From contig DSEQ01000034.1 in assembly GCA_011056555.1 (NCBI GenBank), positions 11 through 64,010 on the forward strand: 64,000 bases of DNA, in the 5' to 3' direction. Origin of the DNA: Candidatus Zixiibacteriota bacterium. GTDB lineage: Bacteria > Zixibacteria > MSB-5A5 > JAABVY01. Numbering within the stretch: the stretch's first letter is position 1; every line of letters begins with the position of its first letter. Both the position numbers and the translations under genes were made by a program. Below, piece by piece: positions 26,192 through 64,000 of the stretch. The notes beneath the pieces are model-generated. The model was given only the letters and a program-made list of their open reading frames with translations. It searched no databases and was not told the DNA's origin.

Positions 26192-26196
26192 GCCGG

Positions 26197-40723: not shown

Positions 40724-40748
40724 AAAAAGCCCGCTCGCGGGCTTTTTT
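40724..40748. terminator. bidirectional rho-independent terminator shared by the convergent rplS operon and the CIS/kinase operon
   Basis: AAAAAGCCCGCtcGCGGGCTTTTTT: A-run/GC stem-loop/T-run symmetric on both strands; the TAA stop of the minus-strand PP2C gene lies inside the T-run. Confidence 0.65.
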
Positions 40749-42105
40749 ATTCCTGTTTGAAATTATCGAGGTCGAGCAGGAGATTGCCGACCCGGAAAGT
40801 CTGGTTCATCCTGGCATACACCAGCCCCTCATCATCGCGCAATTCCAGTATATGATAACCCGGTTCCAGTCCCAGCTGGTCTTTCATAAACTGCGAGACA
40901 GTACCCTGCGGTATCATATCCACATATAAGGTGTGATCGAAGATGGAATCGGGAAAATTATGAAATTTAATGAATACCGTGCCCACAGCCTCGGCTTGAG
41001 CACCGACATTTTCATTATTAGAACCGGTCACCCGGCTCATAAATTCATCCACCGGCGGCCTGACCCCGCCGATATTATAGGCATATGCGAGGTAAGCCAG
41101 GATTGCAATCAATACAATAAATGAAAGCACATACCAGGCAAAGGCGCCCTTGCTTTCGGGTTTGTCCCGATAAACGGGAACCGGTCCTGTTATCTGCTCA
41201 CCGGGAGATTTGCTGTCTTCGGTTTCCTGCCTGGAGGCGAATGCCTTTCGCAGGATATCGTCTTCAATCTTTAGCTCCTGGCTCGTTTCCTCGTCCACAG
41301 TCTGCTGTACCAGATCCTTGGAAAAATCGTCCGGGCTCTTGATATCCAGAACCTTAACTACAGCAACAGTAATATTGTCTTCGCCCCCGCTGGCATTGGC
41401 GCGTTCTATCAGCTCTTTGCAGATTTTGTCGAGGCTGGCATTTTCCCTGGATAGCGTCTGGAGAATATTCGCATCGGAAACAAATCCGCTCAGGCCGTCC
41501 GAGCACAGCAGGTACAGATCGCCATCTGCAATCCGATCCTTGCGGATATCCACTTTGACATTCTCCCTTGTTCCCAGAGCCCGGGTAATCACATTTTTAT
41601 TTACAAAGTTTTCGGACTCTTCCTCTGTAAGCTGATTGCTGCTGATAAGCTCATTGACCCAGGAGTGATCGACAGTCAGCTGCTCCAGATTGCCGTTTCG
41701 CAAACGGTATACCCTGCTGTCGCCGACATGGCAGATAATCACATGATCACCGGCCATCTGCACCGTAACGACAGTGGTACCCATGCCGCGCATCTCTTTA
41801 TTGCGTACCGATTGATTGAAAATCCTGCGGCTGGCCAGCCGAATAGCATGTACAAGTATTCTGCTTTCTTCCCCGAAGCCTTTCTCGAGCTGGAGAGTTT
41901 CCGGTATAGGACCGAAATCAGCGGGGGATGCTACCGCGGCCGCAATGGTTTCAGCCGCGAGCTCAGAGGCCACCTCGCCGGCGGCATGACCGCCCATGCC
42001 GTCGCAAACCACCGCCAGATTTTTTTCCTTGAGGAGTTTATAATTATCCTCATTCAGCTCTCGGACCAATCCCACATCAGTGCGGGCTGCAATTTCTAAT
42101 TTCAC
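40747..42105 (-). CDS. membrane-anchored PP2C-family Ser/Thr phosphatase with C-terminal extracytoplasmic domain
   Basis: 452 aa; PP2C motifs (TDVGLVRELNEDNY; VCDGMGGHAAGEVAS; VGDSRVYRL; CSDGLSGFV; GGEDNITVAVV), then TM (AFAWYVLSFIVLIAILAYLAYAY), then ~110-aa C-terminal domain; GTG start. Confidence 0.85.
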   Translation of the reverse strand: MKLEIAARTDVGLVRELNEDNYKLLKEKNLAVVCDGMGGHAAGEVASELAAETIAAAVASPADFGPIPETLQLEKGFGEESRILVHAIRLASRRIFNQSVRNKEMRGMGTTVVTVQMAGDHVIICHVGDSRVYRLRNGNLEQLTVDHSWVNELISSNQLTEEESENFVNKNVITRALGTRENVKVDIRKDRIADGDLYLLCSDGLSGFVSDANILQTLSRENASLDKICKELIERANASGGEDNITVAVVKVLDIKSPDDFSKDLVQQTVDEETSQELKIEDDILRKAFASRQETEDSKSPGEQITGPVPVYRDKPESKGAFAWYVLSFIVLIAILAYLAYAYNIGGVRPPVDEFMSRVTGSNNENVGAQAEAVGTVFIKFHNFPDSIFDHTLYVDMIPQGTVSQFMKDQLGLEPGYHILELRDDEGLVYARMNQTFRVGNLLLDLDNFKQE

Positions 42106-42111
42106 AAATTC

Positions 42112-43422
42112 CTACTTAAAAATGATAATTAGTACAATAATAATCAGCAATATTCCAATAGCGCCCAGAAGATAAGGCAAATACAAATTTTTTCCAATGC
42201 TTGTAACGGCACCTTTACCGGCATCCGGCGGTGAAAAATCGAAATGGCCTTCCTCGGCCACACGAAAAATCGTGCTCTCCTTAACCGACGATATTTCCAC
42301 GACATCGCCGATATTCACAGGCAGCACTTCATCGGTCGAAATAGTCCGGCCATTGAGCCTGGTACGCATCTGGCTGGCCCTGTCAGATAAATAAAACCGG
42401 CCATCCTTAAACTCTATTTCTGCGTGTTTTCGGGATATACTCTTATCAATCTCGCCTTTACTGTCGCTCCTGATGACTATATCGTTTTGCTTGCGATCCC
42501 GGCCGATGCGGTTTATATCTTTTTTCAGCCTGAATTTTTCCCCTTTCAAGGGCCCGCTGATCGACAGAAGATAAATATCGAGTTCACGTTGGGGTGATAT
42601 CTGCTCGGGCTCTGAGGGCTGTTCCCGGGTAGATGGCAGAATTTTTGTCTTATGCACATCATCACTTTTTCTCTGGCTCTGAGGAGGTTCAGGCGTATCT
42701 GCCGGTTTCGGCACTTCCTTTCGAGGAGGAGGCGCGGGCGGTTCCGGCTCGGTTTTTCTATCTGGCGGTCCTGGTGATTCGGGCTCTGGTTTTGCCTCCG
42801 CGCCTTTCTGCGGAGGTGCAGGCTCGGGCGCAGGTGCGGGAGGTTCCGGTTCCTTTTCGACTTTTTCAGGGGCGGAATCCTCCAGATCAGGATCTATCGT
42901 AATCTCTTCTGTCTTCATATGATGAATATCTTCTCCGGACGACTCTTCAGTAAGCTTTGCAGGCTCGGGAGATTCGGGCTCCGGCGGCTTTGCCGGAACC
43001 TCCGGCGGCTTTTCATCCGGCAGCTCAGGCTTTTTCTCAGCCGGCAGATCTTCCTCTGTCTTGGCCGGGGGCCCCGATTTTTCTTCCGGCTTGAAGTCAG
43101 GTGCTTTTCCTTTCGCCGGCATTTCATCAGGCAGAACATTCAGGATCAGGTAATAGTCCTCGATCCTTATAGTATCGCCGTCCTCGAGCTTCACATCACC
43201 CTCCACCCTTTCTTCTGTAACAAACACAGGAGGCAGGTGAGTCATGAGCTGCAGGTGGAAACCGTCGTCTCTCAAGACCAGCCTGGCCAGTTCGGGGGCA
43301 ATGGAGGGGTCCTCTATCGGCACATCGCATCCAGTTGAACAGCCGATGGTAATTTCATCCTTGTAAGGCAGATTATAGGTCTTGATAATCTCAGGGCCCT
43401 TCTGTACAATTATTTTAGGCAT
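42112..43422 (-). CDS. FHA-domain protein with Pro/Glu-rich repeat linker and C-terminal tail anchor
   Basis: 436 aa; degenerate FHA-like N-terminus (ITIGCSTGCDVPIED..), long PEP/PAP-rich low-complexity region, canonical FHA (RIGRDRKQNDIVIRSD..ISRKHAEIEFKDGRFYLSD..S.NGT), terminal TM (LLGAIGILLIIIVLIIIF). Confidence 0.75.
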   Translation of the reverse strand: MPKIIVQKGPEIIKTYNLPYKDEITIGCSTGCDVPIEDPSIAPELARLVLRDDGFHLQLMTHLPPVFVTEERVEGDVKLEDGDTIRIEDYYLILNVLPDEMPAKGKAPDFKPEEKSGPPAKTEEDLPAEKKPELPDEKPPEVPAKPPEPESPEPAKLTEESSGEDIHHMKTEEITIDPDLEDSAPEKVEKEPEPPAPAPEPAPPQKGAEAKPEPESPGPPDRKTEPEPPAPPPRKEVPKPADTPEPPQSQRKSDDVHKTKILPSTREQPSEPEQISPQRELDIYLLSISGPLKGEKFRLKKDINRIGRDRKQNDIVIRSDSKGEIDKSISRKHAEIEFKDGRFYLSDRASQMRTRLNGRTISTDEVLPVNIGDVVEISSVKESTIFRVAEEGHFDFSPPDAGKGAVTSIGKNLYLPYLLGAIGILLIIIVLIIIFK

Positions 43423-46056
43423 CTACTCCCTCTTCAGCTCTTCCTCAATTTTATATTCATTATTTTCCTTAATGCTCTTGCCGTCATCCCAGCCCTTATA
43501 ACCGTCCTTGTCGGCAATTAGCTTATATTTTCCGGCCTCGAGCTGAACTGCAAGCTGGCCGAATTCATTCGTCGTGCCCAGGTATATTCTCTTTCTATCA
43601 TCTTTTCTTTCGGCAAGAATGTTGACACCCTCCAGCGGCTCATCGCTATCATCATCCTTGAAAACGAAAATGAGCATGGCCTTTTCCATAACCTCCTCGG
43701 GCTCTTCGACCGGCTCTCCCTCATCCTCCTCCTCTCCGACCTTACGCATAACAGCCTTCAACTCCGTCTGATTTACACCGATCACAAAACTGGTATCAAT
43801 ATAATCCCGCTTACTGAGATATATTCTGTGCTCCACACCTGTCAAAAGCAAATTTATCGGCGTCTTGTCGGCCGATTCGGAAAGACGTCCCTCACTTTCA
43901 ATTTTGGTGATTCGCGCTCCAATATCTCCGCCTTTCGGATTGGAGGCTGCAACCGCGGTGACAGCGACCTCGCGATACAATTCATAAAATAGCGAACCCT
44001 GGAAATTCTCGTCGATATCAACCAACCTGACCTTGTCTTCAAATCCGGACTTTACCAGCCTGATTCTGGCTTGACCAAAAGGTATCATGACATTATCGGG
44101 CGTCTGGCCCACAGGTTCATCCTGGTCCTCCAGATAAATATCGGCTCCCTGGGGTTTACTGGAAATTTTTATATTCTTCCGAAATCTCCCGGTGATCTCC
44201 GGAAGTTCATTCTCTTTATTGTAACTATAATCCCAGAGGCCTTCATTATCAGTCTTGAAATCTCCCGAGGAGACATTGAAGCCGGCAAGTCTCAGGGCGC
44301 CTGAAGCCTTTTCATGCTCGAGCCGAATATCAACGCTATCAGTTAAAGGTATCGGAACCAGAGCAGGGGTAACCGCGGGGTAAAGATTGTTATCCACAAA
44401 TATTGATGCTCCCTGCGGGATGGAATTGATACGTGCCTCTCGCTTCAAAACGAAATTAGGAAAGGTAATTTGATCGCCCTCTTTCAGGACGAACTGGGTA
44501 TCAATCGGGCTGGCCTTGTCCATTTCGATACGGAGATTGTACTGTCCTGCGTCGAGCTGATTGATCTGCAACGGAGTTTTTCCCGACTTTTCTCCATTAA
44601 GAAAAACAACCGCACCTTCCGGAACAGAATTTATCCATACCGCATATTCCCCGGAAGGGCCGCTGCTTCCACCTGCGCCCCCGATCAAAGTGCCGATTAT
44701 AAGAAGCAGAATTAAAATTATTATTGCACCGCCGCCATACACCCAGATTCTTTTGTCGGCGCGCTTGAGGGCGGCCAGGGATGACTGAAAGTCGAAAGCG
44801 GGCTTCTTCCTCTTGAATGACGGAACTTCCCTGACTACCGTTTTAGCATCGGCGCTCTCGCTTGAATATATTGATGTTCTGGCTTCGTCTCCTGAGGTGT
44901 CATGGATAACAGTCCGGGCCTCTTCCGACGTACTATCATAGATTACCGTTTTGGCTTCTTCCGGTTCAGCTGCCGGTTCTCTTTTCGGCTTCTGCTCCCC
45001 TGTCTTCCGTTCTTCAGGCGGCCCGGGTTTCGGCCCCACAGGTTCAGGTTCCGGCGGAGTACTCAGGATTTGTGTTTTGATTTTCTGCTGGCTGTTCTGC
45101 CGGGTTGCTTTTTCCTCAGCTTCCACAGGCTCCTTAACATACATGGAATGCACCAATCGTGACAGATCCGAGGTGGGCTCACCCGGAAAATATTTTCGCG
45201 AGAGATGGTACAGGTCGACATACATTTCATTGGCTGACTTATACCTCTCAGACCTGTCTTTCTTCAGGGCCTGACGGATCACATCAGAACAACCCTCGGG
45301 CAGATCGACAGTTTCCAGGGGTGCAAAATCAATTTGCCCCGAGGTAATCTTTTTCATAACCGTGAAATCCGAATCGCCCGAAAAGAGTTCTTCACCGGTG
45401 CACATCTCGTAAAAAACCGAACCAAGCGAGAAAATATCGCTCTGGCGTGTAGCTTCTTTACCCTCCAGCTGCTCGGGAGACATGTAGGCCACCTTACCTT
45501 TGACGAAACCGGTTTGGGTCTTCTGCACTATACGGTTGCGGGCCTTGGCAATGCCGAAATCAATCAGCTTGACCGAGCCCTCCACGGTGAGCATGATATT
45601 CGAGGGCGAGATATCCCTGTGCACGATATTCAATGGCTGCCCGGATTTTCTATCCTTGAGGTTATGCGCATATTCGAGCGCTTTGCAGATTTCGCTAATA
45701 ATGTGCATGGCCATGTTTTTCGGCATGGTCTCGTTGCGATCGTTATAGTAATCGATCACCTCGCGCAGATCGACGCCTTCGATAAACTGCATGATTATAA
45801 AGACGCGATCATCGGGAGTTTTCCTGAGACTGTAAACCTGTACTATATTGGGATGGTTAAGGCGGGCTGTATTGACGGCCTCGTCGATGAACATATCGAC
45901 ATACTGCTTCTCACCCAGCAGAGATTTAACAACTTCCTTTATCGCAACGGGACGATCGAGAGTCAAATCCCAACCGTAATATATAGTGCCGAAACCTCCC
46001 GCTTTGATCTCGCGGATGATTTCATACTGCTCATCTATAATCCTGCGCGCGCTCAT
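43423..46056 (-). CDS. Hanks-type Ser/Thr protein kinase with TM segment and extracytoplasmic PEGA repeats
   Basis: 877 aa; kinase subdomains (GGFGTIY..VAIK; HRDISPSNIML; DFGIAK; SPE), Pro-rich linker, TM (IWVYGGGAIIILILLLIIGTLIGG), then at least 3 PEGA-like repeats (INSVPEGAVVFLNGEKSGKTP; INSIPQGASIFVDN; SSKPQGADIYLEDQ). Confidence 0.9.
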   Translation of the reverse strand: MSARRIIDEQYEIIREIKAGGFGTIYYGWDLTLDRPVAIKEVVKSLLGEKQYVDMFIDEAVNTARLNHPNIVQVYSLRKTPDDRVFIIMQFIEGVDLREVIDYYNDRNETMPKNMAMHIISEICKALEYAHNLKDRKSGQPLNIVHRDISPSNIMLTVEGSVKLIDFGIAKARNRIVQKTQTGFVKGKVAYMSPEQLEGKEATRQSDIFSLGSVFYEMCTGEELFSGDSDFTVMKKITSGQIDFAPLETVDLPEGCSDVIRQALKKDRSERYKSANEMYVDLYHLSRKYFPGEPTSDLSRLVHSMYVKEPVEAEEKATRQNSQQKIKTQILSTPPEPEPVGPKPGPPEERKTGEQKPKREPAAEPEEAKTVIYDSTSEEARTVIHDTSGDEARTSIYSSESADAKTVVREVPSFKRKKPAFDFQSSLAALKRADKRIWVYGGGAIIILILLLIIGTLIGGAGGSSGPSGEYAVWINSVPEGAVVFLNGEKSGKTPLQINQLDAGQYNLRIEMDKASPIDTQFVLKEGDQITFPNFVLKREARINSIPQGASIFVDNNLYPAVTPALVPIPLTDSVDIRLEHEKASGALRLAGFNVSSGDFKTDNEGLWDYSYNKENELPEITGRFRKNIKISSKPQGADIYLEDQDEPVGQTPDNVMIPFGQARIRLVKSGFEDKVRLVDIDENFQGSLFYELYREVAVTAVAASNPKGGDIGARITKIESEGRLSESADKTPINLLLTGVEHRIYLSKRDYIDTSFVIGVNQTELKAVMRKVGEEEDEGEPVEEPEEVMEKAMLIFVFKDDDSDEPLEGVNILAERKDDRKRIYLGTTNEFGQLAVQLEAGKYKLIADKDGYKGWDDGKSIKENNEYKIEEELKRE

Positions 46057-47480
46057 TTTTTCTCCGGCGCCTCCGAAAATCCAAATTTAACCGGATCGGT
46101 GGCAATAATCATCGCCGCCATTATCTTGGGAACATACTCCACCGTCTCATTGTGCAACATGTCATTTTTCACAAGATACCAGAATCTATTTTGCTCGATC
46201 ACATCCATCCTCATCAGGGCATTCCTGATTCTCCCCAGGCCTGTGTTGTAGGATGCCATAGCCAGCATATAAGAGTTATACAAATTATATAATTGTTTAA
46301 TATATTTACAAGCAGCTTCGGTGGATTTTTTCGCATTAACTCGTTCATCCATATCATTATTCACGGTCAGGCCGAAATCTCGTGCGGTTGCCGGCATAAA
46401 CTGCCAGAGCCCGCGGGCGCCGGCGGGGGATGTGGCTGTGCTGTCGTAGCCGGATTCCACGAATGCCAGATAAGCGAACTCTTCGGGCAAACCCGCACCC
46501 CTCAACATGCGCCGCACCATGCCCATATGCATCTCCGACCTTTCCAGCGAGCGTTCAAACCAGCCGCGCAAATTGCCTGTGAACTTATCCACATATTTTA
46601 CGGTATTCTCGACGAATATCAAGGGTATTTCATTCTGCGGATCGCCCAGATCCTTCGAAAGCCTTATCAAGCGGTAGCTGACATATTCCTGCAGGGTCTG
46701 CCGCGCGAGGCTTCTTTTCTCTTCCCATGGTTGATAGACATAACGGTATCCGGCCCCTGCCAAAAGAACGACAAATATGATCGGCAGCAGTACCTTCAGC
46801 AGCCTGGTGAATAGAGGACGGCGGAATTTGGCCCCCTCACCGATTCCAATTTGCGGCCCCTTTTCTCCGATCATGATGCTGTCGCCGAATTTCAAAGCGG
46901 CGGTGGTAATTCTCTCGCCATTTACATAAGTGCCATTGGTAGAATCCAGATCCTTTATGGATATTGTCGGCGGAATATAATTTATTTCGGCATGTATCCG
47001 CGAGACCATGGGCATATCCAGAGTTAGATCGCAGGCTGAATCCCGCCCGATCTCTATTCTACCGGGCAGAAACTCATAAGATTCCCCGCCGTCAACCTTC
47101 AGAAGCAGTTTTTTGGAAACTGCCTGAACCATCTGCGTCCTGTCAGCAGAACTTCTTTTTCGCGGTTTCTCGGATCGCCCGCTTTCACTGAATGTGACTT
47201 CAATCTCCGGACCGCCCTGGCCGAAGCTTACATGATCGCCAGATGATACAAATCCGGAATTATGATGATTGCCGTTTACAAAAGTGCCGTTGGAAGAACC
47301 CAGGTCGGAAAGATAGAGGCCCTCCGCCTTGACAGTGAACCTGCAGTGCTCGTAAGATACTATATCAGAATTAATGGACAGGTCGGCATCCTCCGACCTG
47401 CCAACTAATACACTGGATTGATTAAATTTAAGTCGTTTTCCTGTATTTTCACCGGATATAAATTCAAATGCTATCTCCAA
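46053..47480 (-). CDS. tandem-FHA protein fused through a TM segment to a periplasmic SLT lytic transglycosylase domain
   Basis: 475 aa; two FHA domains (VLVGRSEDADLSI..SYEHCRF..LSDLGSSNGTFVNG; IEIGRDSACDLTL..VSRIHAEI..IKDLDSTNGTYVNG), TM (LLKVLLPIIFVVLLAGAGY), SLT motifs (AFVESGYD...GARGLWQFMPATARDFGL); ATGA overlap with the kinase gene; TTG start. Confidence 0.85.
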   Translation of the reverse strand: MEIAFEFISGENTGKRLKFNQSSVLVGRSEDADLSINSDIVSYEHCRFTVKAEGLYLSDLGSSNGTFVNGNHHNSGFVSSGDHVSFGQGGPEIEVTFSESGRSEKPRKRSSADRTQMVQAVSKKLLLKVDGGESYEFLPGRIEIGRDSACDLTLDMPMVSRIHAEINYIPPTISIKDLDSTNGTYVNGERITTAALKFGDSIMIGEKGPQIGIGEGAKFRRPLFTRLLKVLLPIIFVVLLAGAGYRYVYQPWEEKRSLARQTLQEYVSYRLIRLSKDLGDPQNEIPLIFVENTVKYVDKFTGNLRGWFERSLERSEMHMGMVRRMLRGAGLPEEFAYLAFVESGYDSTATSPAGARGLWQFMPATARDFGLTVNNDMDERVNAKKSTEAACKYIKQLYNLYNSYMLAMASYNTGLGRIRNALMRMDVIEQNRFWYLVKNDMLHNETVEYVPKIMAAMIIATDPVKFGFSEAPEKK

Positions 47481-47490: not shown

Positions 47491-49707
47491 CTATCCAGTC
47501 TTAAAAATTAAGTCGATTTGACCTATAGAAATCACATCGTTATTGATCAGAACCCTTCGAGTTATCCTGTTCTTGTTAACCATCGTGCCATTGGTGGAAC
47601 CCTGGTCGATCAGCTCGTACTTGCCTCCAGAGTATTCGATGGTTGCATGATTGCGCGATACCCCCTCGGAAGGCAGGTGAATGTCATTTGCTTTGTCGGC
47701 TCCGATTTTATTGGTTCCTTTCATAAGGTGAAATTCATGCTGGGGAGCATCGCCGGATTTGACCTCCAGCATGGCTTCCCCTATCTGAGCCTTCTTGCCC
47801 TTCTTCGACGCGGCCACAATTATTATAATGATAATCAGCAGAATAACCACGATAAGGACTATCAGCAGGATCAGGCCGTACTTCTCAAGGAAGCTCTCAC
47901 CTTTTATAGCCACTTCCTCACCGCTGGGTTCGCTGTACTCGTGGCTGCTGGTAATGAGATTGCCGTCCATATCAACATCGACGCTGACACTAATTTCACC
48001 CTCTACAGGAAGGCCGGATACCGCCAGCGCATACTGGCCGCGGATAAGGGCTATCGATCTCCTGAAGAGAAAATAGATCATATCGTCTTTATCAGCAGAG
48101 TAGAAGAAACCGCCGCTGAGATCGGCAATCTTCCTTATCTCCTCCAAAAATTCGGGCGATTTTTCATTGTCATACCCCAGCGTATATATCTGCGGGAGAT
48201 CATGCGACCGCTTATAATCTTCAAGGGTCTTAAAATTGTTGCGGCTCGACTCACCTTTGCTATTAGTGACCACCACAAAGATCGGGTATTTTTCCGCGCC
48301 GGAGGTGTCATAATAATTCAAAGCCTCTAAAACCGCATCATAAAGCGGGGCCTTCTGACCGTTAAACTGGAGATTATTTATTGCCGTCTTCTGCGTCGAA
48401 AAAGATTTTTCCAGAGGCATGGCAAGTTCGATATTATCGGCAAATTTGAAAAAGGCAACCCGATGGCGGGATTCGTCCAGCTTGGCCAGAAATTCTGTGG
48501 TCAGCTTTTCCTTTATTAGATTGATCTCATTCTCTTTCAACCCCACAGTGCCGAGCAGGAAGATAAAGTCAATTTCATCCTCCCGAAACTGTGGATGCGC
48601 CTTCTGGATTTCCAACTCCTGTTCCCCGACCTTGATCCCGGGGAAATTTTCAGCTATCAGCCCGCTGACAATATTTCGGTTATCCTCGAAGACAGACAGC
48701 ACAACCAGATTTTGACTGGGAATCACCCGGTTAATGGTTATATTTTCAGTGGAATCAACATTGGACGATATAACCGCCTTTTTGATGATTGTCTCTTTTA
48801 CTGTTTTTTCGGCCACCAGAGAGGGAAGCTCGGTCAGGGCAAATTTCCAGATTGTCTCATTCTTATTATCGAGAACATAACAGACATCCCGCCCGGCAAC
48901 ATCAACAGATATCGGTTCATCAAGCATACCGCCGCTGAACGGCGCCTCCCATTGACCTGACTCGAAATCTGCGGTGAAAAAGACCACCTTTTCCTTCTTA
49001 TCCAGAACAAAGAGCTCACCGTGCTGGTTGACGCACAGGTCAACCGGCTCCCCGATTTCCTTGCCTCCGAATTGCACCGGAATTTCTATAATCAGCGAGC
49101 CTTCACTATTGAAAACCTGCACTGTCTTTTTCTTCTCATCAAGAACGAAGACCCGTCCCTGATGATCGACATCGACAGCAATTGGATCCTCGAAGCCGGC
49201 CCCCTGCAAAGTACCAAGATCCTGTCCGTCTTCATCGAAAATACGGACATTATCTTTGTCCTTATCGGCAACGTAAACGCGGCCGTCACGGGCAACCGTA
49301 ACCGACATGGGCCGACCGAACGTCTTTTCGCCGCCTATCGTGCCCTGCCGCATACCCTCCTGGGTAAAGCGCGAGAGCTCATCACGGTCGCGATCCACCA
49401 CGTACACCAACCCATCGATGCCGATATCGATATCCTGGGGAACCTCGATGTCGTCATCACCAATTGGAATAGACCTCAAATACTGGCCGTTACCTGAAAA
49501 TACCTGCACAAGATTATTGCGGGCCGAGCCGATATATATTTCACCTCCCGGGCCGACATAGATAGCCTTGACATTGGAGACCTCGCTATCACCTGTCCCG
49601 CCGGGCAGTTTTATACGCGGCAGGCTTTCTACTTTAATTGCAAAGGCATTGGAAACAAGAAACAGTGCGGCAACTATGCCCCATAAAATCAAATTCCTTT
49701 TCGACAT
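47491..49707 (-). CDS. signal-peptide NHL-repeat beta-propeller + vWA-like domain, TM, C-terminal cytoplasmic FHA domain
   Basis: 738 aa; signal peptide; at least 5 NHL-like blades (YVVDRDRD..; RVYVADKDKD..; RVFVLDEKKK..; ELFVLDKKEK..; VCYVLDNKNE..); vWA-like segment (FLLGTVGL..VVVTNSKGESS..IYTLGYD); TM (LILLIVLIVVILLIIIIIIV); FHA (KIGADKANDIHL..VSRNHATIEY..LIDQGSTNGTMVN). Confidence 0.75.
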   Translation of the reverse strand: MSKRNLILWGIVAALFLVSNAFAIKVESLPRIKLPGGTGDSEVSNVKAIYVGPGGEIYIGSARNNLVQVFSGNGQYLRSIPIGDDDIEVPQDIDIGIDGLVYVVDRDRDELSRFTQEGMRQGTIGGEKTFGRPMSVTVARDGRVYVADKDKDNVRIFDEDGQDLGTLQGAGFEDPIAVDVDHQGRVFVLDEKKKTVQVFNSEGSLIIEIPVQFGGKEIGEPVDLCVNQHGELFVLDKKEKVVFFTADFESGQWEAPFSGGMLDEPISVDVAGRDVCYVLDNKNETIWKFALTELPSLVAEKTVKETIIKKAVISSNVDSTENITINRVIPSQNLVVLSVFEDNRNIVSGLIAENFPGIKVGEQELEIQKAHPQFREDEIDFIFLLGTVGLKENEINLIKEKLTTEFLAKLDESRHRVAFFKFADNIELAMPLEKSFSTQKTAINNLQFNGQKAPLYDAVLEALNYYDTSGAEKYPIFVVVTNSKGESSRNNFKTLEDYKRSHDLPQIYTLGYDNEKSPEFLEEIRKIADLSGGFFYSADKDDMIYFLFRRSIALIRGQYALAVSGLPVEGEISVSVDVDMDGNLITSSHEYSEPSGEEVAIKGESFLEKYGLILLIVLIVVILLIIIIIIVAASKKGKKAQIGEAMLEVKSGDAPQHEFHLMKGTNKIGADKANDIHLPSEGVSRNHATIEYSGGKYELIDQGSTNGTMVNKNRITRRVLINNDVISIGQIDLIFKTG

Positions 49708-57160: not shown

Positions 57161-57781
57161 TTATGTAATGGGTGGTATAACAAGTTCGGTACCCGGCTCG
57201 AGCTTTAGGGGATCCTCGATCCGGTTGTAATCGGCGATCCTGCGCCATTGGCTGGCGTCATTGTATTCCCTGTGAGCAATCAGGCTGAGCGTATCACCCT
57301 TGCGCACAATCCTACGCTTGGCACGGTCGGCCGACTGACGCGGCTGACGCTGCAATTGCTCAAAGGTAGTGGTATATTCCTTGAAGGTAACATCCAGTTT
57401 TGCGCGCACAGGAGTGCCGTCCTCAAGGAACATAATATAGCGTTGGTCAAGTTTTTCAAGCACACCCTTGAACTGGAACTGACCCCACGTGAATAAGCAC
57501 AGGGGCGGGCGATGCTTATCAGGATCGACCATCAATAATGTTTCCACTTTTTGCGTATGTGTTCGCACATCCTCTTTTTGCTCAAACGTATCGAAGAAGA
57601 GTTCCATCGACAGTTCCATCCGCTGACCGGTTGTGAAAGATGCCGCCGGGGCATCAAGGCCCAGTACTCGCTGTTCAGCCCAGGGTGTCCTCTTTTTCAA
57701 TGTGTACTCAGTCGGATTGAAGAGAACATTGAAGGTCTCATTCTTATCGACATTTGTGATTGTAGCCTTCTCAAGAGGCAT
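57161..57781 (-). CDS. LysM-containing tube-initiator/baseplate hub protein (Afp7 / P2 gpX-D-like)
   Basis: 206 aa; N-terminal tube-like domain, C-terminal LysM (RKGDTLSLIAHREYNDASQWRRIADYNRIEDPLKLEPGTELVIP). Confidence 0.8.
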   Translation of the reverse strand: MPLEKATITNVDKNETFNVLFNPTEYTLKKRTPWAEQRVLGLDAPAASFTTGQRMELSMELFFDTFEQKEDVRTHTQKVETLLMVDPDKHRPPLCLFTWGQFQFKGVLEKLDQRYIMFLEDGTPVRAKLDVTFKEYTTTFEQLQRQPRQSADRAKRRIVRKGDTLSLIAHREYNDASQWRRIADYNRIEDPLKLEPGTELVIPPIT

Positions 57782-60324
57782 TAAGCTTCACCTCCCATAC
57801 GCTCCCCTTCGGTTTCCAGAATTCTCTTCAGACGGAAATATATCGATTCTATCGTATCCTCATCCAGCTCCACTTCTTCTTCATCCTGTACCGCTTCCAA
57901 TGGCGAACGCACCTGCTCCGATCTTTCATCATCCAGATCAATCAATGAAAGGCCGTAATCCTGAAGCCTGGAGGAAGTTCTTTGAGTCGTGCTTCCGACC
58001 TGATCCGGAAGCCCTTCGCCGGCATGACGCTGTATTGCGTCACCAACCTCAAATGGCGGACGATCCCATCCCCTCGGCATACGGCGCTGCAGTTGGGGAA
58101 GGTTGAACGGCAGGCTGCCGCTGCCCAGAGCAGGGGAAATATCCTGCATCGAACCGCCCGGAGCAGCGCCTCCTGAAGCTTCCTCTTGTACTCCACCTCC
58201 TCGTCCTATAAGATCTCCGATATCTCCCATCAGTCCTTCTGCTCCTTGAGCCAACCGCCCCAGGCGGCCGCCGACAAGTGAGCCGATGCGGCCGGCAGCG
58301 CCGGAAGTTGCTCTTTGCAAAAAGCCGCCCGCGATTGAACTTAGCCCCCCCGCGAAGCTGGAAGCTCTTTCCACGAGCCCCCGGGACAAATCTGCCGCGC
58401 GAGAAGCCGCGGAACCCGGGCCTCCTGCCGCACCGGGGACGCTCGATATAAACGAGCTGGCACGGGAGAGTCCTCTGCTCAATAGATCGCCGACACTTCC
58501 CGCCGCCCTTCCAGGGCCCGCGCCAGAATCTGACCTCGGAGATCCTTCAGGAGTAGCTGACAGTGCTGATTCTTCGCCAGTTCCGATTCCCAATGCGCTC
58601 GCTATGCCGGAAAGACCGCCTGCGAGTCCTCTTGCTCCGGAAACGAGAGCTGAAACCGAGGGCAGTGCGGTTGTCCCGGAAGTACCTCGCGCCAGTTGAC
58701 CTGGAAGCCGGGAGTCGGCCTGGCCGGTTCCCCCCGATCCTGACGGCCGGAGCAGCTGCCCTAGCCTCTCCCCAATTTGACCGGCAAAGCCGCGTGTGAG
58801 TCTGCCGATGACATCCCCTGCAAGTAAGGACTGTCCGGACGCGGCTGGTCCTGGAATCGCTTCGTGACTTTCAGAGGCCGAGGACAATCTCTCAGAAGAT
58901 ACATGGCTCATCCTGCCGAGAATAACTGCGGACGGCGTTTCACGCCCGATGGTTTCAGCTCGATACCTGGCAATAACGCCCAGTGGATCCTGGGTCGGCG
59001 ATTCAAGCACACGTTCGATCCTGCCCTCACGCAGGACAGGCGAAATTCGGGAAGGCGCTGTCGATCCTGCGGCAATCTTGAACGGCTTGATGTGCCTCTC
59101 GACCATCGAGTCGAAATCCCGTTCAATAGCCAGGATCGCCTCCTCGACGGCTCCCTGCTCCCGGGACTTTGTGATAATCTCTTCCATTTTTGGAAGCAGG
59201 GATTCCACAGCCTTCCGTGCAGGTTCCGACCTGGGAAGCTGCATCCGGCTCCTGAGAGCTCTCGCGAAAGATCTGGCCCGGTCGATTTTTTTGCCGGCAG
59301 CAAAAATGTATGCCGGGCTTATTTCCTCAATCGGATGCCCGCTGCTCTCCGCCTTAAGACAGACATCTTCAGCAAATTCCCGGCTGCCCATAACAGGAAG
59401 AGCGGGCAAATCTTCTGCGGCCCCTTTTGTTTTTCCCACTCGTCGGCCGGGCAGGAAATAACCGAGGCCGAGGTCGGATTGTGCTGATCCTACCGGTTGG
59501 GCCATCTCATCGCTAATCAGATCGGCAGCCTCTGTCATCTCGATCTCCCGGAACGGTTCAATAAGCGTAAACCGTCTCCTGGATATGGCCGCTGACACCG
59601 GGGCTTCCATGAAATAATCTTTTTGGGCCAGGACTGTTGTCCTGAGTGTTGCCCATTTGCCCCTGCGAGAGAGATAAACAAAATCCCCCTCATAAATATA
59701 AAAACCCTCAAATTCAGGACCCGCAGGAGGCTCCGGCATATATTTGCCGACGATTTCATCAATATATTTATCAACCACGGATACTTTTGCGATGAAGTGA
59801 TCAATCCGGCTTTCCGCAATAAACGGATGAATAGTCATTATTCTCTTTTCATCCAGGATAGAAAATATAGGCCGATCATATTTCTGGCCGATCTCATCCG
59901 AGAATCCCACCGATCCCGGCTGAAAATCAGCCCCGGGTCCGGCCCCCGTGACAGATGCTTGCTGAGCCGCTTCCTCCCTCTTCTCTTCACCGCCAAGGAG
60001 AATGCGCGTATTGAAGTTGACATATGGATGCTCCTCGATCAGCGCGGGCGGTCCAAAGATCAGTTTGCCGTCGGCGGCTGTCTCATAAGGAGATTGTATA
60101 TCCAGGCTGAAATCGAATCTGTCAGCCGGCAGGCCGGTGGCAAATTCAGCCAGCTGGGCAAAATGGTTGCAGATCTGCTCCCCGTTACGTTTGAGCCTCT
60201 GGCCCTCCCGCAATGCGGCGAGGCTGGTACGTTCCGGGAGCGATTCAAAAATCCGCTTTTCGGCAAGATGCTCTTCCATCCTGCGCTTGAGCTCACGTAA
60301 TTTGTTTATCCAGAGCTTATCCAT
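57781..60324 (-). CDS. large protein in tape-measure position with Gly/Ser/Ala-rich degenerate repeats (candidate tail tape measure protein)
   Basis: 847 aa; C-terminal half is low-complexity with recurring S-R-G-L..A-S-S-F / G-G-L-S-x-I-A-x-G units; sits between tube and hub genes as TMP does in P2-like tails; 1-nt TAATG overlaps on both sides. Confidence 0.45.
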   Translation of the reverse strand: MDKLWINKLRELKRRMEEHLAEKRIFESLPERTSLAALREGQRLKRNGEQICNHFAQLAEFATGLPADRFDFSLDIQSPYETAADGKLIFGPPALIEEHPYVNFNTRILLGGEEKREEAAQQASVTGAGPGADFQPGSVGFSDEIGQKYDRPIFSILDEKRIMTIHPFIAESRIDHFIAKVSVVDKYIDEIVGKYMPEPPAGPEFEGFYIYEGDFVYLSRRGKWATLRTTVLAQKDYFMEAPVSAAISRRRFTLIEPFREIEMTEAADLISDEMAQPVGSAQSDLGLGYFLPGRRVGKTKGAAEDLPALPVMGSREFAEDVCLKAESSGHPIEEISPAYIFAAGKKIDRARSFARALRSRMQLPRSEPARKAVESLLPKMEEIITKSREQGAVEEAILAIERDFDSMVERHIKPFKIAAGSTAPSRISPVLREGRIERVLESPTQDPLGVIARYRAETIGRETPSAVILGRMSHVSSERLSSASESHEAIPGPAASGQSLLAGDVIGRLTRGFAGQIGERLGQLLRPSGSGGTGQADSRLPGQLARGTSGTTALPSVSALVSGARGLAGGLSGIASALGIGTGEESALSATPEGSPRSDSGAGPGRAAGSVGDLLSRGLSRASSFISSVPGAAGGPGSAASRAADLSRGLVERASSFAGGLSSIAGGFLQRATSGAAGRIGSLVGGRLGRLAQGAEGLMGDIGDLIGRGGGVQEEASGGAAPGGSMQDISPALGSGSLPFNLPQLQRRMPRGWDRPPFEVGDAIQRHAGEGLPDQVGSTTQRTSSRLQDYGLSLIDLDDERSEQVRSPLEAVQDEEEVELDEDTIESIYFRLKRILETEGERMGGEA

Positions 60325-60767
60325 TATGCTGTCGCAAGTTCCAGTCCTTCGTGCGCCAAAGTCAAGGATTCTATTAATGTTGTCGTCTTATCCGACCGCA
60401 GCTCCGGAATATTCCAGCTGATCGGAAAAGCGCGCTGGAAATTCCATCTTTTGATTTCGGTTCCATCGGTCGCCAGAAGAATTATTGAGCCCGACTTCCG
60501 TTCCAGGGGCTCGTTCTTCTCGATCGAATCCGCCAGCCATTTAAAAAGGGAATCGCTGTCGACATAGCCTCGCTTGAGTGTAATATTGGTCTGTATGGAA
60601 TGCCCCGGAAATTTCAAGGTGCGCGTGTTCTCTCCACCTTCATGATACTCGAAGACATCCCTTTTCTGTTCGAGTCCCTGTACGCTGGTGAAATGAGCCT
60701 CGGCGATACCGTCAATCTCGATCTTGAAATTCAGGTTTACCCTGTGATCTTTCCTCTCAATCGGCAT
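60324..60767 (-). CDS. contractile tail tube protein (T4 gp19 / Afp1/5-like)
   Basis: 147 aa; FKIEIDGIAEAHFTSVQGLEQKRDVFEYHEGGENTRTLKFPGHSIQTNITLKRGY, the gp19-family signature. Confidence 0.85.
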   Translation of the reverse strand: MPIERKDHRVNLNFKIEIDGIAEAHFTSVQGLEQKRDVFEYHEGGENTRTLKFPGHSIQTNITLKRGYVDSDSLFKWLADSIEKNEPLERKSGSIILLATDGTEIKRWNFQRAFPISWNIPELRSDKTTTLIESLTLAHEGLELATA

Positions 60768-60770
60768 ATG

Positions 60771-62519
60771 CTATTCTTCCTGGGTCTCCATCGTCTTTTG
60801 CGATACCCTGACAATGATGAATTCAGCCGGGCGCACGATGGCCACTCCGACTTCGATTATCAGTTCTCCCCTGTCACGCACCTCCGGTGGATTGGTCTCC
60901 TCATCAACCTTGATATAGAATGCTTCTTCGACATTTTCTCCCTGAAGGTACCCTTTCTTCCAGAGGCTCTTCAGAAAGAAAAAGACCAGGCGTTTGACGC
61001 TTTCCCACAGCTCGGGCCGATTCGGCTCAAAGGTCACCCATTGAGTGCCCTGTTCGATTGACTCCGAGATCATATTGAACGTGCGCCGTACATTTATATA
61101 CCTGAATGCGGCGTCGGAAGAAAGCGTACGCGCCCCCCAGACGCGAATTCCGCGTCCCGGAAACGCCAGCACCGTGTTGATACCGTCGGGATTCAGAATC
61201 TCCGTATCAGATTGCATCAGGGGGTATTCGGTGTCGACAATGCCCTCTATTTCACGGTTTGCAAATGAGTGATGCGTGCCTGAGGCGAGGTCCAGAGCAG
61301 CCATCATTCCCGCCACATACCCGGAAGGAGGCACCAGCTTCATCGGCAGCATCTGCTCTACTTGAGAAACTTTGGCCTTAAGCCAGGGATAGGCCACTGC
61401 CGCACAGGAAGAATCGAACTCCTCGCGCCAGATCTGCACATTCTTTATGTCCTGCAGGGGAGGAGAATCAATCAGCAGAAAGCGGTATTTGGAATTTTCG
61501 ACATAGTCGATGGCCGCCCGCAAGACCGCGCTCACACCTTTTTTCCCGCCGAATGCGGTGCTTTCCTGATGAGTATACAGGTCGGGCAACGCAATGATGC
61601 GCCCCTCCTCCAGCTCAACCAGAAGGCGCAGGCCGAATCTATTTCCGGATTTTTCCGACAGGCCGATATAATCGTCCGGAATAATGGTCGAAATGCCGTC
61701 CCTTCCTCCCTTCAAGATCAGCTTGCCGGGTTTTGGAAAGGCCCTTATCCTGTCTCCGACAAATTGCATCCTTACAAAACGGGATCCCTTATTCACAGAA
61801 TCCACAATGAACCTTTTCGAGTTGGTACCTGGAGAAAGATTGCCAAGACTTTCCTTCTGGCCGCCATAGCGGATTTGCAGGTCAAACCTTATCGGGCTGA
61901 TTTCAGTTCGTTCGCCTGAGGGATAGCGCCTTCGCAAGCCGGCCTCGGCCAGCTCGATTGTCTGTCCTCTAACCTGCGCAATCTCCACGTGTTCGACATT
62001 TCCACCTGATTTAATCCGAACTATATCCCCTCTGACGAAATGCCTGGCATTGGCCAGCCGGATGCTTTTGCTGGAACGGTCCAGATTCTGCTCAGGATAG
62101 GTTTTAATTTTCTGGCGTGAAGGCTGAATTTCCAGCGTGACCTTATTGCCCCAGGTACCGCCGGATGAGGCCCGCACCTTATAAAGCGGCGTTTGTTCAA
62201 GCGACTTAAAACTTCCCGAGGCGGTCTCGACCACTTCTTCGTTGCGGCGGCGGACCACATGCGCAATCCTGATAATGTAGCACTCCCTGCCTCCATTCAA
62301 AAAGAAGCCGTAAACCGCGTAGGGCAGGTAGCTGCCCGGCAGAAAACTGCCGAAATAATTCTTGAAATCATTGAAGGAACTTATGCGCAATGCTTTCCCC
62401 ACCGGCCCGCGTTCTGCGAGGCCCAGGAAAACCGCACAATCGGTCTTGACTACTTCGAGGTAGCGTTCCCCGCGACTCTCTTTTTCAATATGTACGCCGG
62501 GTGCATAGTATTCAGGCAT
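60771..62519 (-). CDS. contractile tail sheath protein (gp18 / Afp2-4-like)
   Basis: 582 aa; N-terminal YAPGVHIEKES and C-terminal ..AFPGRGIRVWGARTLSSD, the sheath signatures. Confidence 0.9.
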   Translation of the reverse strand: MPEYYAPGVHIEKESRGERYLEVVKTDCAVFLGLAERGPVGKALRISSFNDFKNYFGSFLPGSYLPYAVYGFFLNGGRECYIIRIAHVVRRRNEEVVETASGSFKSLEQTPLYKVRASSGGTWGNKVTLEIQPSRQKIKTYPEQNLDRSSKSIRLANARHFVRGDIVRIKSGGNVEHVEIAQVRGQTIELAEAGLRRRYPSGERTEISPIRFDLQIRYGGQKESLGNLSPGTNSKRFIVDSVNKGSRFVRMQFVGDRIRAFPKPGKLILKGGRDGISTIIPDDYIGLSEKSGNRFGLRLLVELEEGRIIALPDLYTHQESTAFGGKKGVSAVLRAAIDYVENSKYRFLLIDSPPLQDIKNVQIWREEFDSSCAAVAYPWLKAKVSQVEQMLPMKLVPPSGYVAGMMAALDLASGTHHSFANREIEGIVDTEYPLMQSDTEILNPDGINTVLAFPGRGIRVWGARTLSSDAAFRYINVRRTFNMISESIEQGTQWVTFEPNRPELWESVKRLVFFFLKSLWKKGYLQGENVEEAFYIKVDEETNPPEVRDRGELIIEVGVAIVRPAEFIIVRVSQKTMETQEE

Positions 62520-62575
62520 TAATGTTCTTCCATGAACTTCGATGCGGCCGAACCTTCACACAAAAGAACGGCCGT

Positions 62576-63481
62576 CTATTTCATTAAATTTAACAAGTCA
62601 ACTGTCTCTGTTTCAAATCCATCCGGTGCCTCAAACACAGACTCTGAAATCTTGTCGAAAGTCATGTCGACCAGTACGGAATTGAATCTGATATTGAACG
62701 CCATCGAGGGCACATCCATATTCTCAGACCACAATTCAACTGTCACATTGAAGGCCATTTCTACATAAAGATATTGCCAGAGATCAAGATAGCTGTCCAT
62801 ATATGAACCGCTGATCCCAAACCTGCCGACAATCCTCTTAAATAGGTTCCACACTTCCGGAGTCAGATAAATTTCCATCATACTCGTAATCGCATTCCGG
62901 TATTCATCATAATTGGGAAAATCGTCTGTCATCCATGAGGTGCCGTTCACACTGAATCTTATCTCGCCCGGGAGCTGCGGTAGGGGAGGATTGGCGCTCC
63001 CCTCCAGAGTGAAAACGACCTCATTGCAATCATAACCTGAGATCTTCCGGCTGTTCCCGGTCTCATTCATCTCGGCCTTATCAATACTGACATATTGCGT
63101 GGCTATCTCAAGGAAGTGATCCAATGTGTCCATGAGCATTGTGAAAGTGTCCGATGAGAAAAACCGATCCAGGCCCGACAGGTTTATCAGCTTGCAGGTT
63201 GAATCGGTCCAGTTGCAGAAACGAATCAGCTCGTTCACAGTATTCATATAGGTGCTTGACCTGAACGAGATGGCAGTATCCCCAACATCCATCTGCCCTT
63301 CGGTCGCAGTGATAACATCATTTCCGCGAATGCCTGTTATCTGGTTAATCTCGAATACTCTCAGAAACGGGATTCCGGACACAGAGGATTTCATCTCTAC
63401 CGTGATGTCGGCGTTCGCGCCGGGGCATGCAAAAATACTGAGCGCCAGAGTAATACATACCGCATTTAATATCTTTTTCAT
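62576..63481 (-). CDS. secreted hypothetical protein (paralog A), signal peptide
   Basis: 301 aa; MKKILNAVCITLALSIFACPGANA signal; paralogous to the next upstream ORF (GTSWMTDDFPNYDEY vs NEWISTDFPVADTY; SMAFNIRFNSVLVDMTFDKISESVFEAPDGFE vs AMSWTMKFETSCLNISFDKVLDEEFEIPRGFR). Confidence 0.5.
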   Translation of the reverse strand: MKKILNAVCITLALSIFACPGANADITVEMKSSVSGIPFLRVFEINQITGIRGNDVITATEGQMDVGDTAISFRSSTYMNTVNELIRFCNWTDSTCKLINLSGLDRFFSSDTFTMLMDTLDHFLEIATQYVSIDKAEMNETGNSRKISGYDCNEVVFTLEGSANPPLPQLPGEIRFSVNGTSWMTDDFPNYDEYRNAITSMMEIYLTPEVWNLFKRIVGRFGISGSYMDSYLDLWQYLYVEMAFNVTVELWSENMDVPSMAFNIRFNSVLVDMTFDKISESVFEAPDGFETETVDLLNLMK

Positions 63482-63505
63482 CTCTCGTCCTGTTGTTTAT
63501 TTTTA

Positions 63506-64000
63506 TTATACATCTTTATCCAGGGCAAACCATTTCTCAAGTCCGGGTATAACAAAAGTCCCGATTTTGCTAAAGGCATTGTGGACCTTTCGAAATCCTC
63601 TGGGGATCTCGAATTCCTCATCCAGTACTTTATCAAACGAGATATTGAGGCAGCTTGTTTCAAACTTCATGGTCCAGGACATCGCGGGCACAGGCTCGCC
63701 CTTGAGGTCACTCTGACCGGACGCTCCCATCTCTATTGTCAGATACAAGCTGCCTTCCAGCACAAGATAAGTGAAAATATCAAACACATGGTCAATTACG
63801 CTGTCCGAAGCATCCATACTGCGAAGAATTTCAGAATAATCACCGAAGAGATTTCTTGTCATAGAGGAGGGCATCCCGCTGAGAAATCGCCGGGAGTGAG
63901 AATATGTATCGGCCACAGGAAAATCGGTCGAAATCCATTCATTCCCCCTGATGACAATTCGAAGCGGCATGATGCTCTCATCAAGAAGCGGGGCTTTGGC
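63506..64000 (-). CDS. secreted hypothetical protein (paralog B), 5' end outside the window
   Basis: reading frame stays open to the window edge (..AKAPLLDESIMPLRIVIRGNEW..); aligns to the C-terminal ~130 residues of paralog A, so about 170 N-terminal residues lie beyond position 64000. Confidence 0.45.
   Translation of the reverse strand, partial: AKAPLLDESIMPLRIVIRGNEWISTDFPVADTYSHSRRFLSGMPSSMTRNLFGDYSEILRSMDASDSVIDHVFDIFTYLVLEGSLYLTIEMGASGQSDLKGEPVPAMSWTMKFETSCLNISFDKVLDEEFEIPRGFRKVHNAFSKIGTFVIPGLEKWFALDKDV

Follow-up and report, generated by a model that had tools for sequence, protein, structure and literature searches.

To our knowledge, contractile injection systems (CIS) that are neither type VI secretion systems (T6SS) nor released particles are attached to membranes in three known ways, namely by the baseplate extension of the cyanobacterial tCIS, by CisA in Streptomyces and by a putative anchor in haloarchaea. 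The Streptomyces and haloarchaeal systems both act inside the cell at the cytoplasmic membrane (PMC10066040, PMC12237407, PMC11566945). The Streptomyces CIS is without a conventional tail fibre; its firing and cell death both require CisA, a bitopic membrane protein whose gene directly follows those of the baseplate (PMC10066040, PMC12237407). The haloarchaeal CIS acts through the S-layer envelope of an archaeon, includes an ATPase gene and kills neighbouring cells in a T6SS-like mode that correlates with a conserved membrane-anchor gene, and no phosphorylation module has been reported for it (PMC11566945). Threonine phosphorylation is described for the canonical T6SS, as PpkA/PppA/Fha1 in Pseudomonas aeruginosa and as PpkA-TssL-Fha in Agrobacterium (PMC3953482); in this pathway FHA-read phosphothreonine gates assembly or firing at the membrane. 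Here we describe a CIS locus of Candidatus Zixiibacteriota, encoded for the most part in a 64,000-nucleotide stretch of contig DSEQ01000034.1 (hereafter the window), whose lineage would offer a fourth way, by means of a TssK-like adaptor and a conserved pair of FHA proteins, to which some members add a kinase and phosphatase together with a tethered lytic transglycosylase. Linkage of the adaptor gene to FHA genes is conserved across three phyla.

Matches to Protein Data Bank (PDB) entries place the locus approximately, by score rather than from a tree, in a branch with the Streptomyces CIS and the haloarchaeal T6SS. The long sheath of the locus (582 aa) matched the Streptomyces CIS best (8bky/9gtp, 4.7e-93), followed by the haloarchaeal T6SS (9ezm, 3e-80), and the same order was obtained with a second, 405-aa sheath (2.3e-138 and 2.8e-129, respectively). 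Sheaths of Afp, PVC, tCIS and AlgoCIS scored no better than ~1e-41 against the long and 5e-54 against the short sheath. The Streptomyces coelicolor CIS (type IId) is the top sequence match not only for both sheaths but also for the Cis11 and Cis12 proteins found here, and for the sheaths the runner-up is the T6SS-like CIS of Halogeometricum borinquense (clade IIa). However, unlike the Streptomyces CIS, the present locus belongs to a diderm host of the FCB (Fibrobacteres, Chlorobi and Bacteroidetes) group, has two sheath genes and has no ATPase gene in its operon. At the position of cisA we find a protein resembling TssK or a phage receptor-binding protein (RBP), and then FHA proteins, a kinase, a phosphatase and a lytic transglycosylase. 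Judged from these differing domains (TssK-like, FHA), homology of the proteins at this position to CisA is unlikely, and the CisA paper mentions neither FHA nor kinase (PMC10066040, PMC12237407). Likewise, the haloarchaeal anchor is a different protein from the components encoded here, and FHA domains or kinases are not mentioned for the haloarchaeal CIS (PMC11566945).

With the extracellular CIS (eCIS) of the Afp, PVC and MAC types the locus shares a sheath, gp19 tube, LysM hub, VgrG, PAAR, gp25, baseplate J, P2-I and a Pvc16-type cap, whereas its sheath sequences are far more distant and it is without the Afp15 ATPase, the Afp13 fibre and 3′ toxin genes. The tail-fibre position is taken by the 513-aa protein described below, and no toxin domain was found downstream of it, only FHA, kinase and PP2C genes. 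The eCIS surveys do not mention an association with FHA or Ser/Thr kinases (PMC6899500, PMC8213781); the only kinases in them are histidine kinases upstream of transcriptional regulators. The likeness to the T6SS pathway is one of parts, in that the contractile machine is encoded together with the set used for T6SS-type Thr phosphorylation, namely FHA proteins, a PP2C phosphatase and a transmembrane (TM) Hanks kinase that has a periplasmic domain. The machine itself, in contrast, is not built from TssBC, Hcp and TssJLM, no TagQRST or TagF homologues were found, and eight FHA domains are spread over five proteins of the window, of which four are membrane-anchored and one is fused to an SLT domain. 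Literature searches on eCIS or contractile injection combined with FHA, kinase, DUF4412, TssK-like or Myxococcota returned papers on the canonical T6SS only. CIS in general, CIS acting at membranes and the phospho-gating of T6SS are already known; an eCIS-type machine that comes with both a TssK-like adaptor and an FHA/kinase module appears to be undescribed within the literature searched. A first reading of the window from its sequence alone (hereafter the sequence-only reading) had supposed as much for the pairing of CIS and Thr phosphorylation, and neither the eCIS surveys nor the full-text searches yielded a precedent.

The signature gene of the lineage, g513, lies on the minus strand at 50206-51747, right after the TssF- and TssG-like wedge genes. 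Its 513-aa product, listed as unknown in the sequence-only reading, has indeed no usable sequence match in Pfam, NCBIfam or the PDB; by predicted fold it has the architecture of TssK and phage RBPs. The AlphaFold model (pLDDT 82.5, pTM 0.40) consists of a beta-sandwich shoulder (residues ~45-190), a helical neck (195-336) and a CBM6/35-like jelly-roll head (340-513), and its seven best Foldseek matches were TssK structures, with IglD also matched. TssK links the T6SS wedge to the membrane complex, and its fold is common to the RBPs of siphophages; therefore, the modelled fold of g513 fits a membrane adaptor or a receptor-binding fibre. The predicted shoulder-neck-head layout and the position after the wedge genes are shared with TssK, whereas the searches of Pfam, NCBIfam and the PDB gave no similarity at the sequence level, the head is a CBM6/35-like jelly roll in place of the TssK head and TM-scores are low. 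Across phyla, identity is 47% in the shoulder, 23% in the neck and 39% in the head, and this conservation of the head favours, as far as sequence can indicate, a conserved partner over a fast-varying receptor.

Close relatives of g513 form ~30 clusters in an index of 5.8 billion proteins, and a pattern scan of one GTDB genome per species found at least 304 loci with a homologue. The best 80 of these 304 were examined as related loci. They are mostly from Myxococcota (Polyangia, Bradymonadia, Kofleriaceae, Haliangium and Nannocystaceae), with some from Planctomycetota and Zixibacteria, and homologues outside the Zixibacteria are 35-40% identical to g513. Moreover, a profile search of 1.84 billion representatives returned 5351 matches, and the best 150 of these show the family to be modular, many members keeping the N-terminal two-thirds only or carrying other C-termini.

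The first FHA gene starts 27 nt after g513 and every later junction as far as the terminator measures ≤12 nt. This gene (49720-50178, minus strand, as are all genes of the module) encodes FHA152, a soluble protein of 152 aa with a Thr-containing N-terminal tail and a C-terminal FHA domain (4e-17). It is followed by NHL-FHA738 (47491-49707; 738 aa), a predicted bitopic membrane protein composed of a signal peptide, a periplasmic NHL beta-propeller and further domain, a TM segment at ~612-640 and a cytoplasmic FHA domain (3.7e-19), which makes it a candidate membrane anchor or sensor. A VWA-like stretch suspected by eye in this protein was dropped, as neither Pfam nor BLAST supports it. The third protein (46053-47480; 475 aa) places a cytoplasmic pair of FHA domains (1.2e-36), basic residues and one TM segment before a periplasmic lytic transglycosylase domain (SLT, 1.1e-24) whose ES, GLWQF and SYNTG motifs are intact. 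Then come an 877-aa Hanks-type Ser/Thr kinase (43423-46056; Pkinase 2.7e-45, PEGA 1.6e-30), in which the VAIK, HRD, DFG and SPE motifs are followed by a TM segment and periplasmic PEGA and CarboxypepD_reg domains, and FHA436 (42112-43422; 436 aa), whose two FHA domains (3.3e-23 over two stretches) are connected by a linker rich in Pro and Glu and which is anchored by a C-terminal TM segment. The operon closes with a gene (40747-42105; 452 aa) for a PP2C phosphatase (PP2C_2 7.3e-15, PP2C 1.6e-11) with DGMGGH and GGEDN motifs, a TM segment and a periplasmic domain of ~100 aa. From their intact catalytic motifs the kinase, PP2C and SLT enzymes look active. Five of these six signalling proteins are predicted to span the inner membrane, with FHA and catalytic domains inside and sensor or enzymatic domains outside. 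PADLOC gave no evidence for a known defence system, as its matches were generic ones to Hanks kinases (PD-T4-6, mad6 and others) apart from a single weak match to PP2C.

The link between adaptor and FHA genes was followed across the related loci with hidden Markov models (HMMs) built from the FHA, kinase, PP2C and SLT domains of the window and run against six-frame open reading frames (ORFs). Among the 63 loci with at least 3 kb of sequence downstream of the g513 homologue, 54 carry a same-strand FHA domain within 1.5 kb downstream of it, and these 54 are spread over Myxococcota, Planctomycetota and Zixibacteria. The first 4.5 kb downstream have an FHA density of 6.4 per 10 kb, against 0.27 farther downstream and 0.08 upstream, a 23-fold local enrichment relative to the farther-downstream region of the same loci. 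The link of the CIS to a Thr-phosphorylation module, proposed from the window alone, is both real and conserved. What recurs is a pair of genes, encoding a small soluble protein with an FHA domain and then a protein consisting of signal peptide, periplasmic domain, TM segment and FHA domain. Counterparts of FHA152 in Myxococcota and Planctomycetota occupy the equal position, measure 170-285 aa and end in an FHA domain; counterparts of NHL-FHA738 in Myxococcota (480-520 aa) read signal peptide-VWA-TM-FHA, the periplasmic domain being VWA there and NHL in Zixibacteria. In Planctomycetota loci the order is FHA, PP2C-TM and Ser/Thr kinase-TM-FHA, and in a Bradymonadia-type group it is FHA, FHA, a PEGA protein, a large TSP_3 protein and a kinase. 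The FHA-FHA-SLT protein is also kept in a Zixibacteria relative of 66-68% protein identity.

The genes of the machine and of the module form one string on the minus strand, running without interruption from 62519 down to 40747 (ORF listing and Pfam scans). From the sheath to PP2C every junction measures between -17 and +56 nt; measurement confirmed the tight spacing reported by the sequence-only reading, including overlaps of 1-4 nt at 55663, 57781, 60324 and 46053-46056 and a 56-nt gap at 62520-62575. The bidirectional terminator it placed at the operon end is also present, as an intrinsic-terminator-like hairpin at 40724-40747 (AAAAAGCCCGCTCGCGGGCTTTTT, 10 pairs, with an A-run and a T-run) common to the CIS operon and the convergent rplS operon. 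The gene string, given as at least 23 kb, is real but does not end at 64000. A 21.7-kb stretch of the source contig, a 927-kb JGI metagenome contig, is identical to the window at 13229 of the 13230 bases they share and extends the operon by 7.5 kb, to ~71535, which brings it to 27 genes and 30.8 kb; a 400-nt gap and a divergent gene lie upstream of its start. Read from 3′ to 5′, the extension holds three exported proteins of ~300 aa (the first of them, at 62576-63481, wholly inside the window), a 144-aa tube, the 405-aa sheath (~65961-67178), a Pvc16_N cap protein, three further exported proteins of ~290 aa, and a 55-aa DUF6760 protein with a 134-aa protein. Two sheath genes and two tube genes are therefore present in the operon, not the single sheath and tube first described. 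The cap gene, which had been looked for beyond 64000, lies at ~67223-67813 (4707-5297 of the contig stretch; Pvc16_N 3.2e-23), and the Afp15-like ATPase looked for there is absent from the operon.

All tail and baseplate genes claimed on the minus strand were recovered in place by ORF listing, Pfam and NCBIfam, and the profiles chosen beforehand as a check on the CIS call (sheath, tube, gp25, Baseplate_J, Phage_base_V, PAAR and TIGR02242) all matched above curated cutoffs. The tail and baseplate gene set is complete. In order of transcription, the tail genes inside the window begin with the 582-aa sheath (60771-62519; second of the two sheath genes, Phage_sheath_1 and Phage_sheath_1C) and a gp19-type inner tube of 147 aa (60324-60767; Phage_T4_gp19 1.8e-37, TIGR02241 115 bits). 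Since the 405-aa sheath and 144-aa tube outside the window are the better matches to a main sheath and tube, and since the 147-aa tube scores better against CIS5_fam than CIS1_fam (both under NCBIfam cutoffs), the in-window pair is probably a baseplate-proximal layer and its tube a Cis5-like tube adaptor. Next comes an 847-aa protein (57781-60324) without a match in Pfam, NCBIfam or PDB sequences, for which the label tape-measure-like holds by gene position only; it might be a tape measure, cargo, or both. Conservation within Zixibacteria covers the N-terminal 457 and the C-terminal 335 aa, and a high content of Gly, Ser and Ala (residues 500-750) causes a 57% GC bump at 58-60 kb. Proteins at this position elsewhere measure 1165, 1465, 1786 and >1800 aa, and those of Myxococcota show no BLAST similarity to the Zixibacteria protein.

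The remaining genes encode a tube initiator or baseplate hub with a C-terminal LysM domain (57161-57781; Afp7/Cis7-like, CIS_tube 3.1e-36, LysM 1.1e-6), a short VgrG/gpV-like spike of 222 aa (56480-57148; Phage_base_V 2.9e-29, VgrG_rel 3e-34, the latter below cutoff), a 131-aa PAAR spike tip without toxin extension (56065-56460; PAAR_motif 9.2e-17) and a gp25/TssE-like sheath initiator (55663-56064; GPW_gp25 2.1e-24). The 1011-aa baseplate wedge (52628-55663; Cis11/gp6/TssF-like) combines Baseplate_J (2.7e-24) and TIGR02243 (349 bits, cutoff 156) matches with an N-terminal T6SS_TssF match of 31 bits, and matches Cis11 of PDB 9gtp at 1.5e-90. The second wedge (51731-52627; Cis12/P2-gpI/TssG-like) matches Tail_P2_I, TIGR02242 (83 bits) and 9gtp_E (5.6e-6) and starts with a PASTA domain, usually an extracellular muropeptide sensor; this PASTA and P2_I architecture recurs in every relative that was examined. 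Three PASTA domains are also present in a separate 258-aa protein, encoded at 35490-36266 beside rpe and 15 kb from the wedge gene.

These data indicate that the locus is a chromosomal CIS and not a prophage. TIGR02241, TIGR02242 and TIGR02243, which mark non-phage tail regions, all score above their curated NCBIfam cutoffs, and the Baseplate J of phages shares 25-28% identity with the 1011-aa protein over one third of its length (tblastn against phage genomes). TssB/C, Hcp and ClpV are absent from the operon, whose sheath is of the single-chain gp18/Afp type and whose tube is of the gp19 type, and no operon protein has a Pfam match to TssJ, TssL or TssM, so that the exclusion of a canonical T6SS by the sequence-only reading stands. 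That reading's preference for an eCIS, T6SS-iv or tailocin-like machine over a prophage was right as to the CIS, but the nearest relatives are intracellular and membrane-acting rather than released eCIS or tailocins. The locus is also stable in the chromosome, since in the relative of 66-68% protein identity all genes keep their order and the operon end again adjoins rplS; visible differences are confined to five exported paralogues and to a 1165-aa protein at the tape-measure position. The left flank is the housekeeping cluster ffh-rpsP-rimM-trmD-rplS, the rest of the window is ordinary diderm chromosome (BamA, OmpH, LpxD, UvrB, RecG), and loci of 98% identity come from Candidatus Zixiibacteriota. 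Rfam and tRNA scans of the window gave no match.

On balance, we lean towards a cytoplasmic CIS that docks to the inner membrane and fires at it, with phosphothreonine marks as the control. Docking and gating are inferred here from gene order, from domain topology and by analogy with the T6SS and CisA. In such a mechanism the particle would assemble in the cytoplasm, and g513 would sit at the baseplate periphery and bridge to the inner membrane, either directly or via FHA proteins, for which the small soluble FHA protein and the bitopic protein with periplasmic domain, TM segment and FHA domain are the candidates. The TM Hanks kinase with its PEGA domain and the PP2C would write and erase phosphothreonine marks that FHA domains read, so that docking or firing would depend on an envelope or periplasmic signal. 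The FHA-tethered lytic transglycosylase could then open the peptidoglycan locally at the docking site. The functional parallels would be the PpkA/PppA/Fha checkpoint of the T6SS and the CisA checkpoint of Streptomyces, and the target of firing may be neighbouring cells or the producer itself.

Several points weigh against this reading, which draws on gene order, domain topology and analogy, with TM topology assigned by eye from hydropathy and the positive-inside rule. The likeness of g513 to TssK is at the level of fold only (model pTM 0.40, TM-scores 0.25-0.40); the same fold is used by phage RBPs, and a CBM-like head would suit an extracellular glycan receptor. No TssJLM-like envelope complex, recycling ATPase or effector was found in the operon. 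Moreover, 9 of the 63 loci have no FHA genes after the g513 homologue, and between Zixibacteria and Myxococcota the FHA domains of the module proteins align alone, the periplasmic domains not. Full orthology of these proteins was therefore dropped, and their conservation is one of architecture and position. Lastly, a same-strand kinase lies within 10 kb in 14 of 49 loci and a PP2C in 6 of 49. It is on account of these low counts that we regard the FHA pair as the conserved core of the module, judged by domain searches, and the kinase and phosphatase as extras encoded in cis, which may act in trans where no gene is nearby.

The main rival is a released eCIS or tailocin, in which particles are freed by lysis, g513 is the receptor-binding fibre, the SLT protein is the release enzyme and the FHA/kinase relay times production and lysis. 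The gene set is of eCIS type in its gp19 tube, single-chain sheath, Pvc16_N cap and LysM hub, g513 occupies the tail-fibre position with an RBP-like shoulder-neck-head layout and a CBM6/35-like head, heads are swapped or missing in the wider family (best 150 of 5351), and an SLT muramidase is encoded in the operon. We nevertheless consider release rather unlikely. An Afp15-type AAA+ ATPase is listed for eCIS classes I and II (PMC6899500), but none was found in the 31-kb operon or in its Myxococcota versions, and a holin/endolysin cassette was likewise not found in the operon. The closest solved relatives are not released particles, a head with 39% identity across three phyla is unlike a determinant of host range, and an SLT domain placed behind two FHA domains and one TM segment suits local, regulated opening of peptidoglycan over bulk lysis. 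The alternative of a suicide device as in Streptomyces, in which the CIS fires into the producer's own membrane after envelope stress and FHA and kinase act as a CisA-like checkpoint, shares its docking and gating steps with the membrane-docked reading and differs in target only. It draws on the S. coelicolor CIS being the top sequence match, on the bitopic CisA, which firing and cell death require and whose gene occupies the equivalent position behind those of the baseplate, on the periplasmic sensor-type domains (PEGA, NHL) and LolA/RseB-like exported proteins of the operon, and on the fact that no effector/immunity pair was recognised in it. We think self-killing unlikely all the same, as regulated death offers a less obvious benefit to a unicellular diderm such as this host than to a multicellular actinomycete; a PAAR-tipped spike and a peptidoglycan-cutting enzyme fit outward delivery, and the haloarchaeal relative of the same branch kills its neighbours.

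Clusters of FHA, Hanks-kinase and PP2C genes with PASTA, PEGA or SLT partners regulate wall synthesis in many bacteria, and the module might accordingly be an independent regulator of envelope growth, akin to the actinobacterial FhaA/FhaB/PstP/PknB cluster, that stands beside the CIS by chance. The absence of a kinase or phosphatase next to most Myxococcota relatives would agree with this. Chance adjacency is, however, hard to reconcile with the 23-fold local enrichment of FHA genes, which follow the g513 homologue in 54 of the 63 loci across three phyla, with gaps as short as those among the CIS genes and a single terminator, or with an entire arrangement kept in the relative of 66-68% identity, and we hold it to be very unlikely. 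A defective myovirus-type prophage reduced to its tail genes has in its favour that all core proteins have phage tail homologues, and yet we regard it as exceedingly improbable. No capsid, portal, terminase, integrase, att-type tRNA or lysis cassette was detected in the 31-kb operon and its flanks, and the 8.5 kb past the window holds more tail-type and exported proteins and then the divergent gene, which bears out the lack of head genes noted in the window. Moreover, a divergent relative occupies the identical chromosomal site, 304 loci in other genomes have the same non-phage layout, a g513 profile found no relative in 2.9 million viral contigs, and PAAR, TIGR02241/2/3 and Pvc16_N are CIS markers.

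We tentatively suggest, as a possibility to which we give somewhat less than even credence, that the membrane-docked CIS represents a widespread, hitherto unrecognised class of membrane-anchored, T6SS-like machines, built of eCIS-type parts throughout, in which a TssK-like adaptor and FHA membrane proteins replace TssJLM and Ser/Thr phosphorylation provides the gating. If this is true, diderm bacteria would have reached an anchored contractile weapon along an independent evolutionary path. The data also suggest that contractile weapons came under phosphothreonine checkpoints on more than one occasion, whether by evolution or by recruitment. Predatory Myxococcota (Bradymonadia, Haliangium, Nannocystaceae, Kofleriaceae) commonly have the lineage, and in them it could serve as a contact-dependent killing device. 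Being without an Afp15-type ATPase, it might be missed by eCIS screens that depend on this gene.

Some related loci show further arrangements. In one Myxococcales subgroup (L047, 3034-5169; also L062, L069 and L084) a Hanks kinase gene lies directly upstream of baseplate J, after which wedge, TssK-like and FHA genes come in turn, a second and independent placement of a kinase. The loci without FHA genes are L003, L029, L031, L036, L039, L064, L073, L080 and L086, to which L079 can be added from outside the n=63 count; in L003 a 326-aa protein and ComEC follow the g513 homologue instead. Two Myxococcota loci (L088, 1-5586; L089, 1891-5840) carry large CHAT-domain (caspase-like) proteins divergent from the CIS operon, accompanied in L088 by an extracytoplasmic function (ECF) sigma-factor-like gene (Sigma70_r4_2), and these CHAT proteins could represent a regulatory or cell-death link.

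Six divergent exported paralogues of ~290-310 aa are encoded in the Zixibacteria operon (window 62576-64000 and contig stretch 1583-4409 and 7119-9944), three of them ahead of the cap gene and the other three between tube and sheath. Each carries a signal peptide or lipobox and is predicted to fold as an open barrel of the LolA/RseB type; by sequence the six make up two divergent groups, linked at E 5e-9. Two reach into the window on the minus strand, g301 (62576-63481) and g309 (63506-64435), each with a weak DUF4412 match; g309 is cut by the window end, and the 154-aa ORF at 63506-63970, for which a look-up of the exact product found no match, is the end of this 309-aa gene. Homologues were found in Zixibacteria only and the Myxococcota operons are without them. 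The paralogues are lineage-specific accessories, with envelope sensing, a periplasmic scaffold or immunity as possible roles.

The 134-aa protein, which has no usable match in Pfam, NCBIfam or the PDB, and the DUF6760 protein, which has a faint P2 GpE match, are encoded at ~70964-71535 (contig stretch 985-1556) by genes that overlap by one base and form a chaperone-like pair. The equivalent pair of Myxococcota, whose genes overlap by 60 nt in L088, is flanked by the first tube and the second sheath, and the arrangement resembles the frameshift-linked tail-assembly chaperone pair of phages. Elsewhere in the window, an operon for an McsA-like UVR protein, the McsB arginine kinase and ClpC lies at 15330-19426; such operons are typical of protein quality control in Firmicutes. 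ClpC (16967-19426), a housekeeping gene next to mcsB, is the one AAA+ gene of the window. The genome is clearly diderm (BamA, OmpH and LpxD at 25172-29075), and a 2000-aa SprA_N-domain protein at 3831-9833 suggests a type IX secretion translocon.

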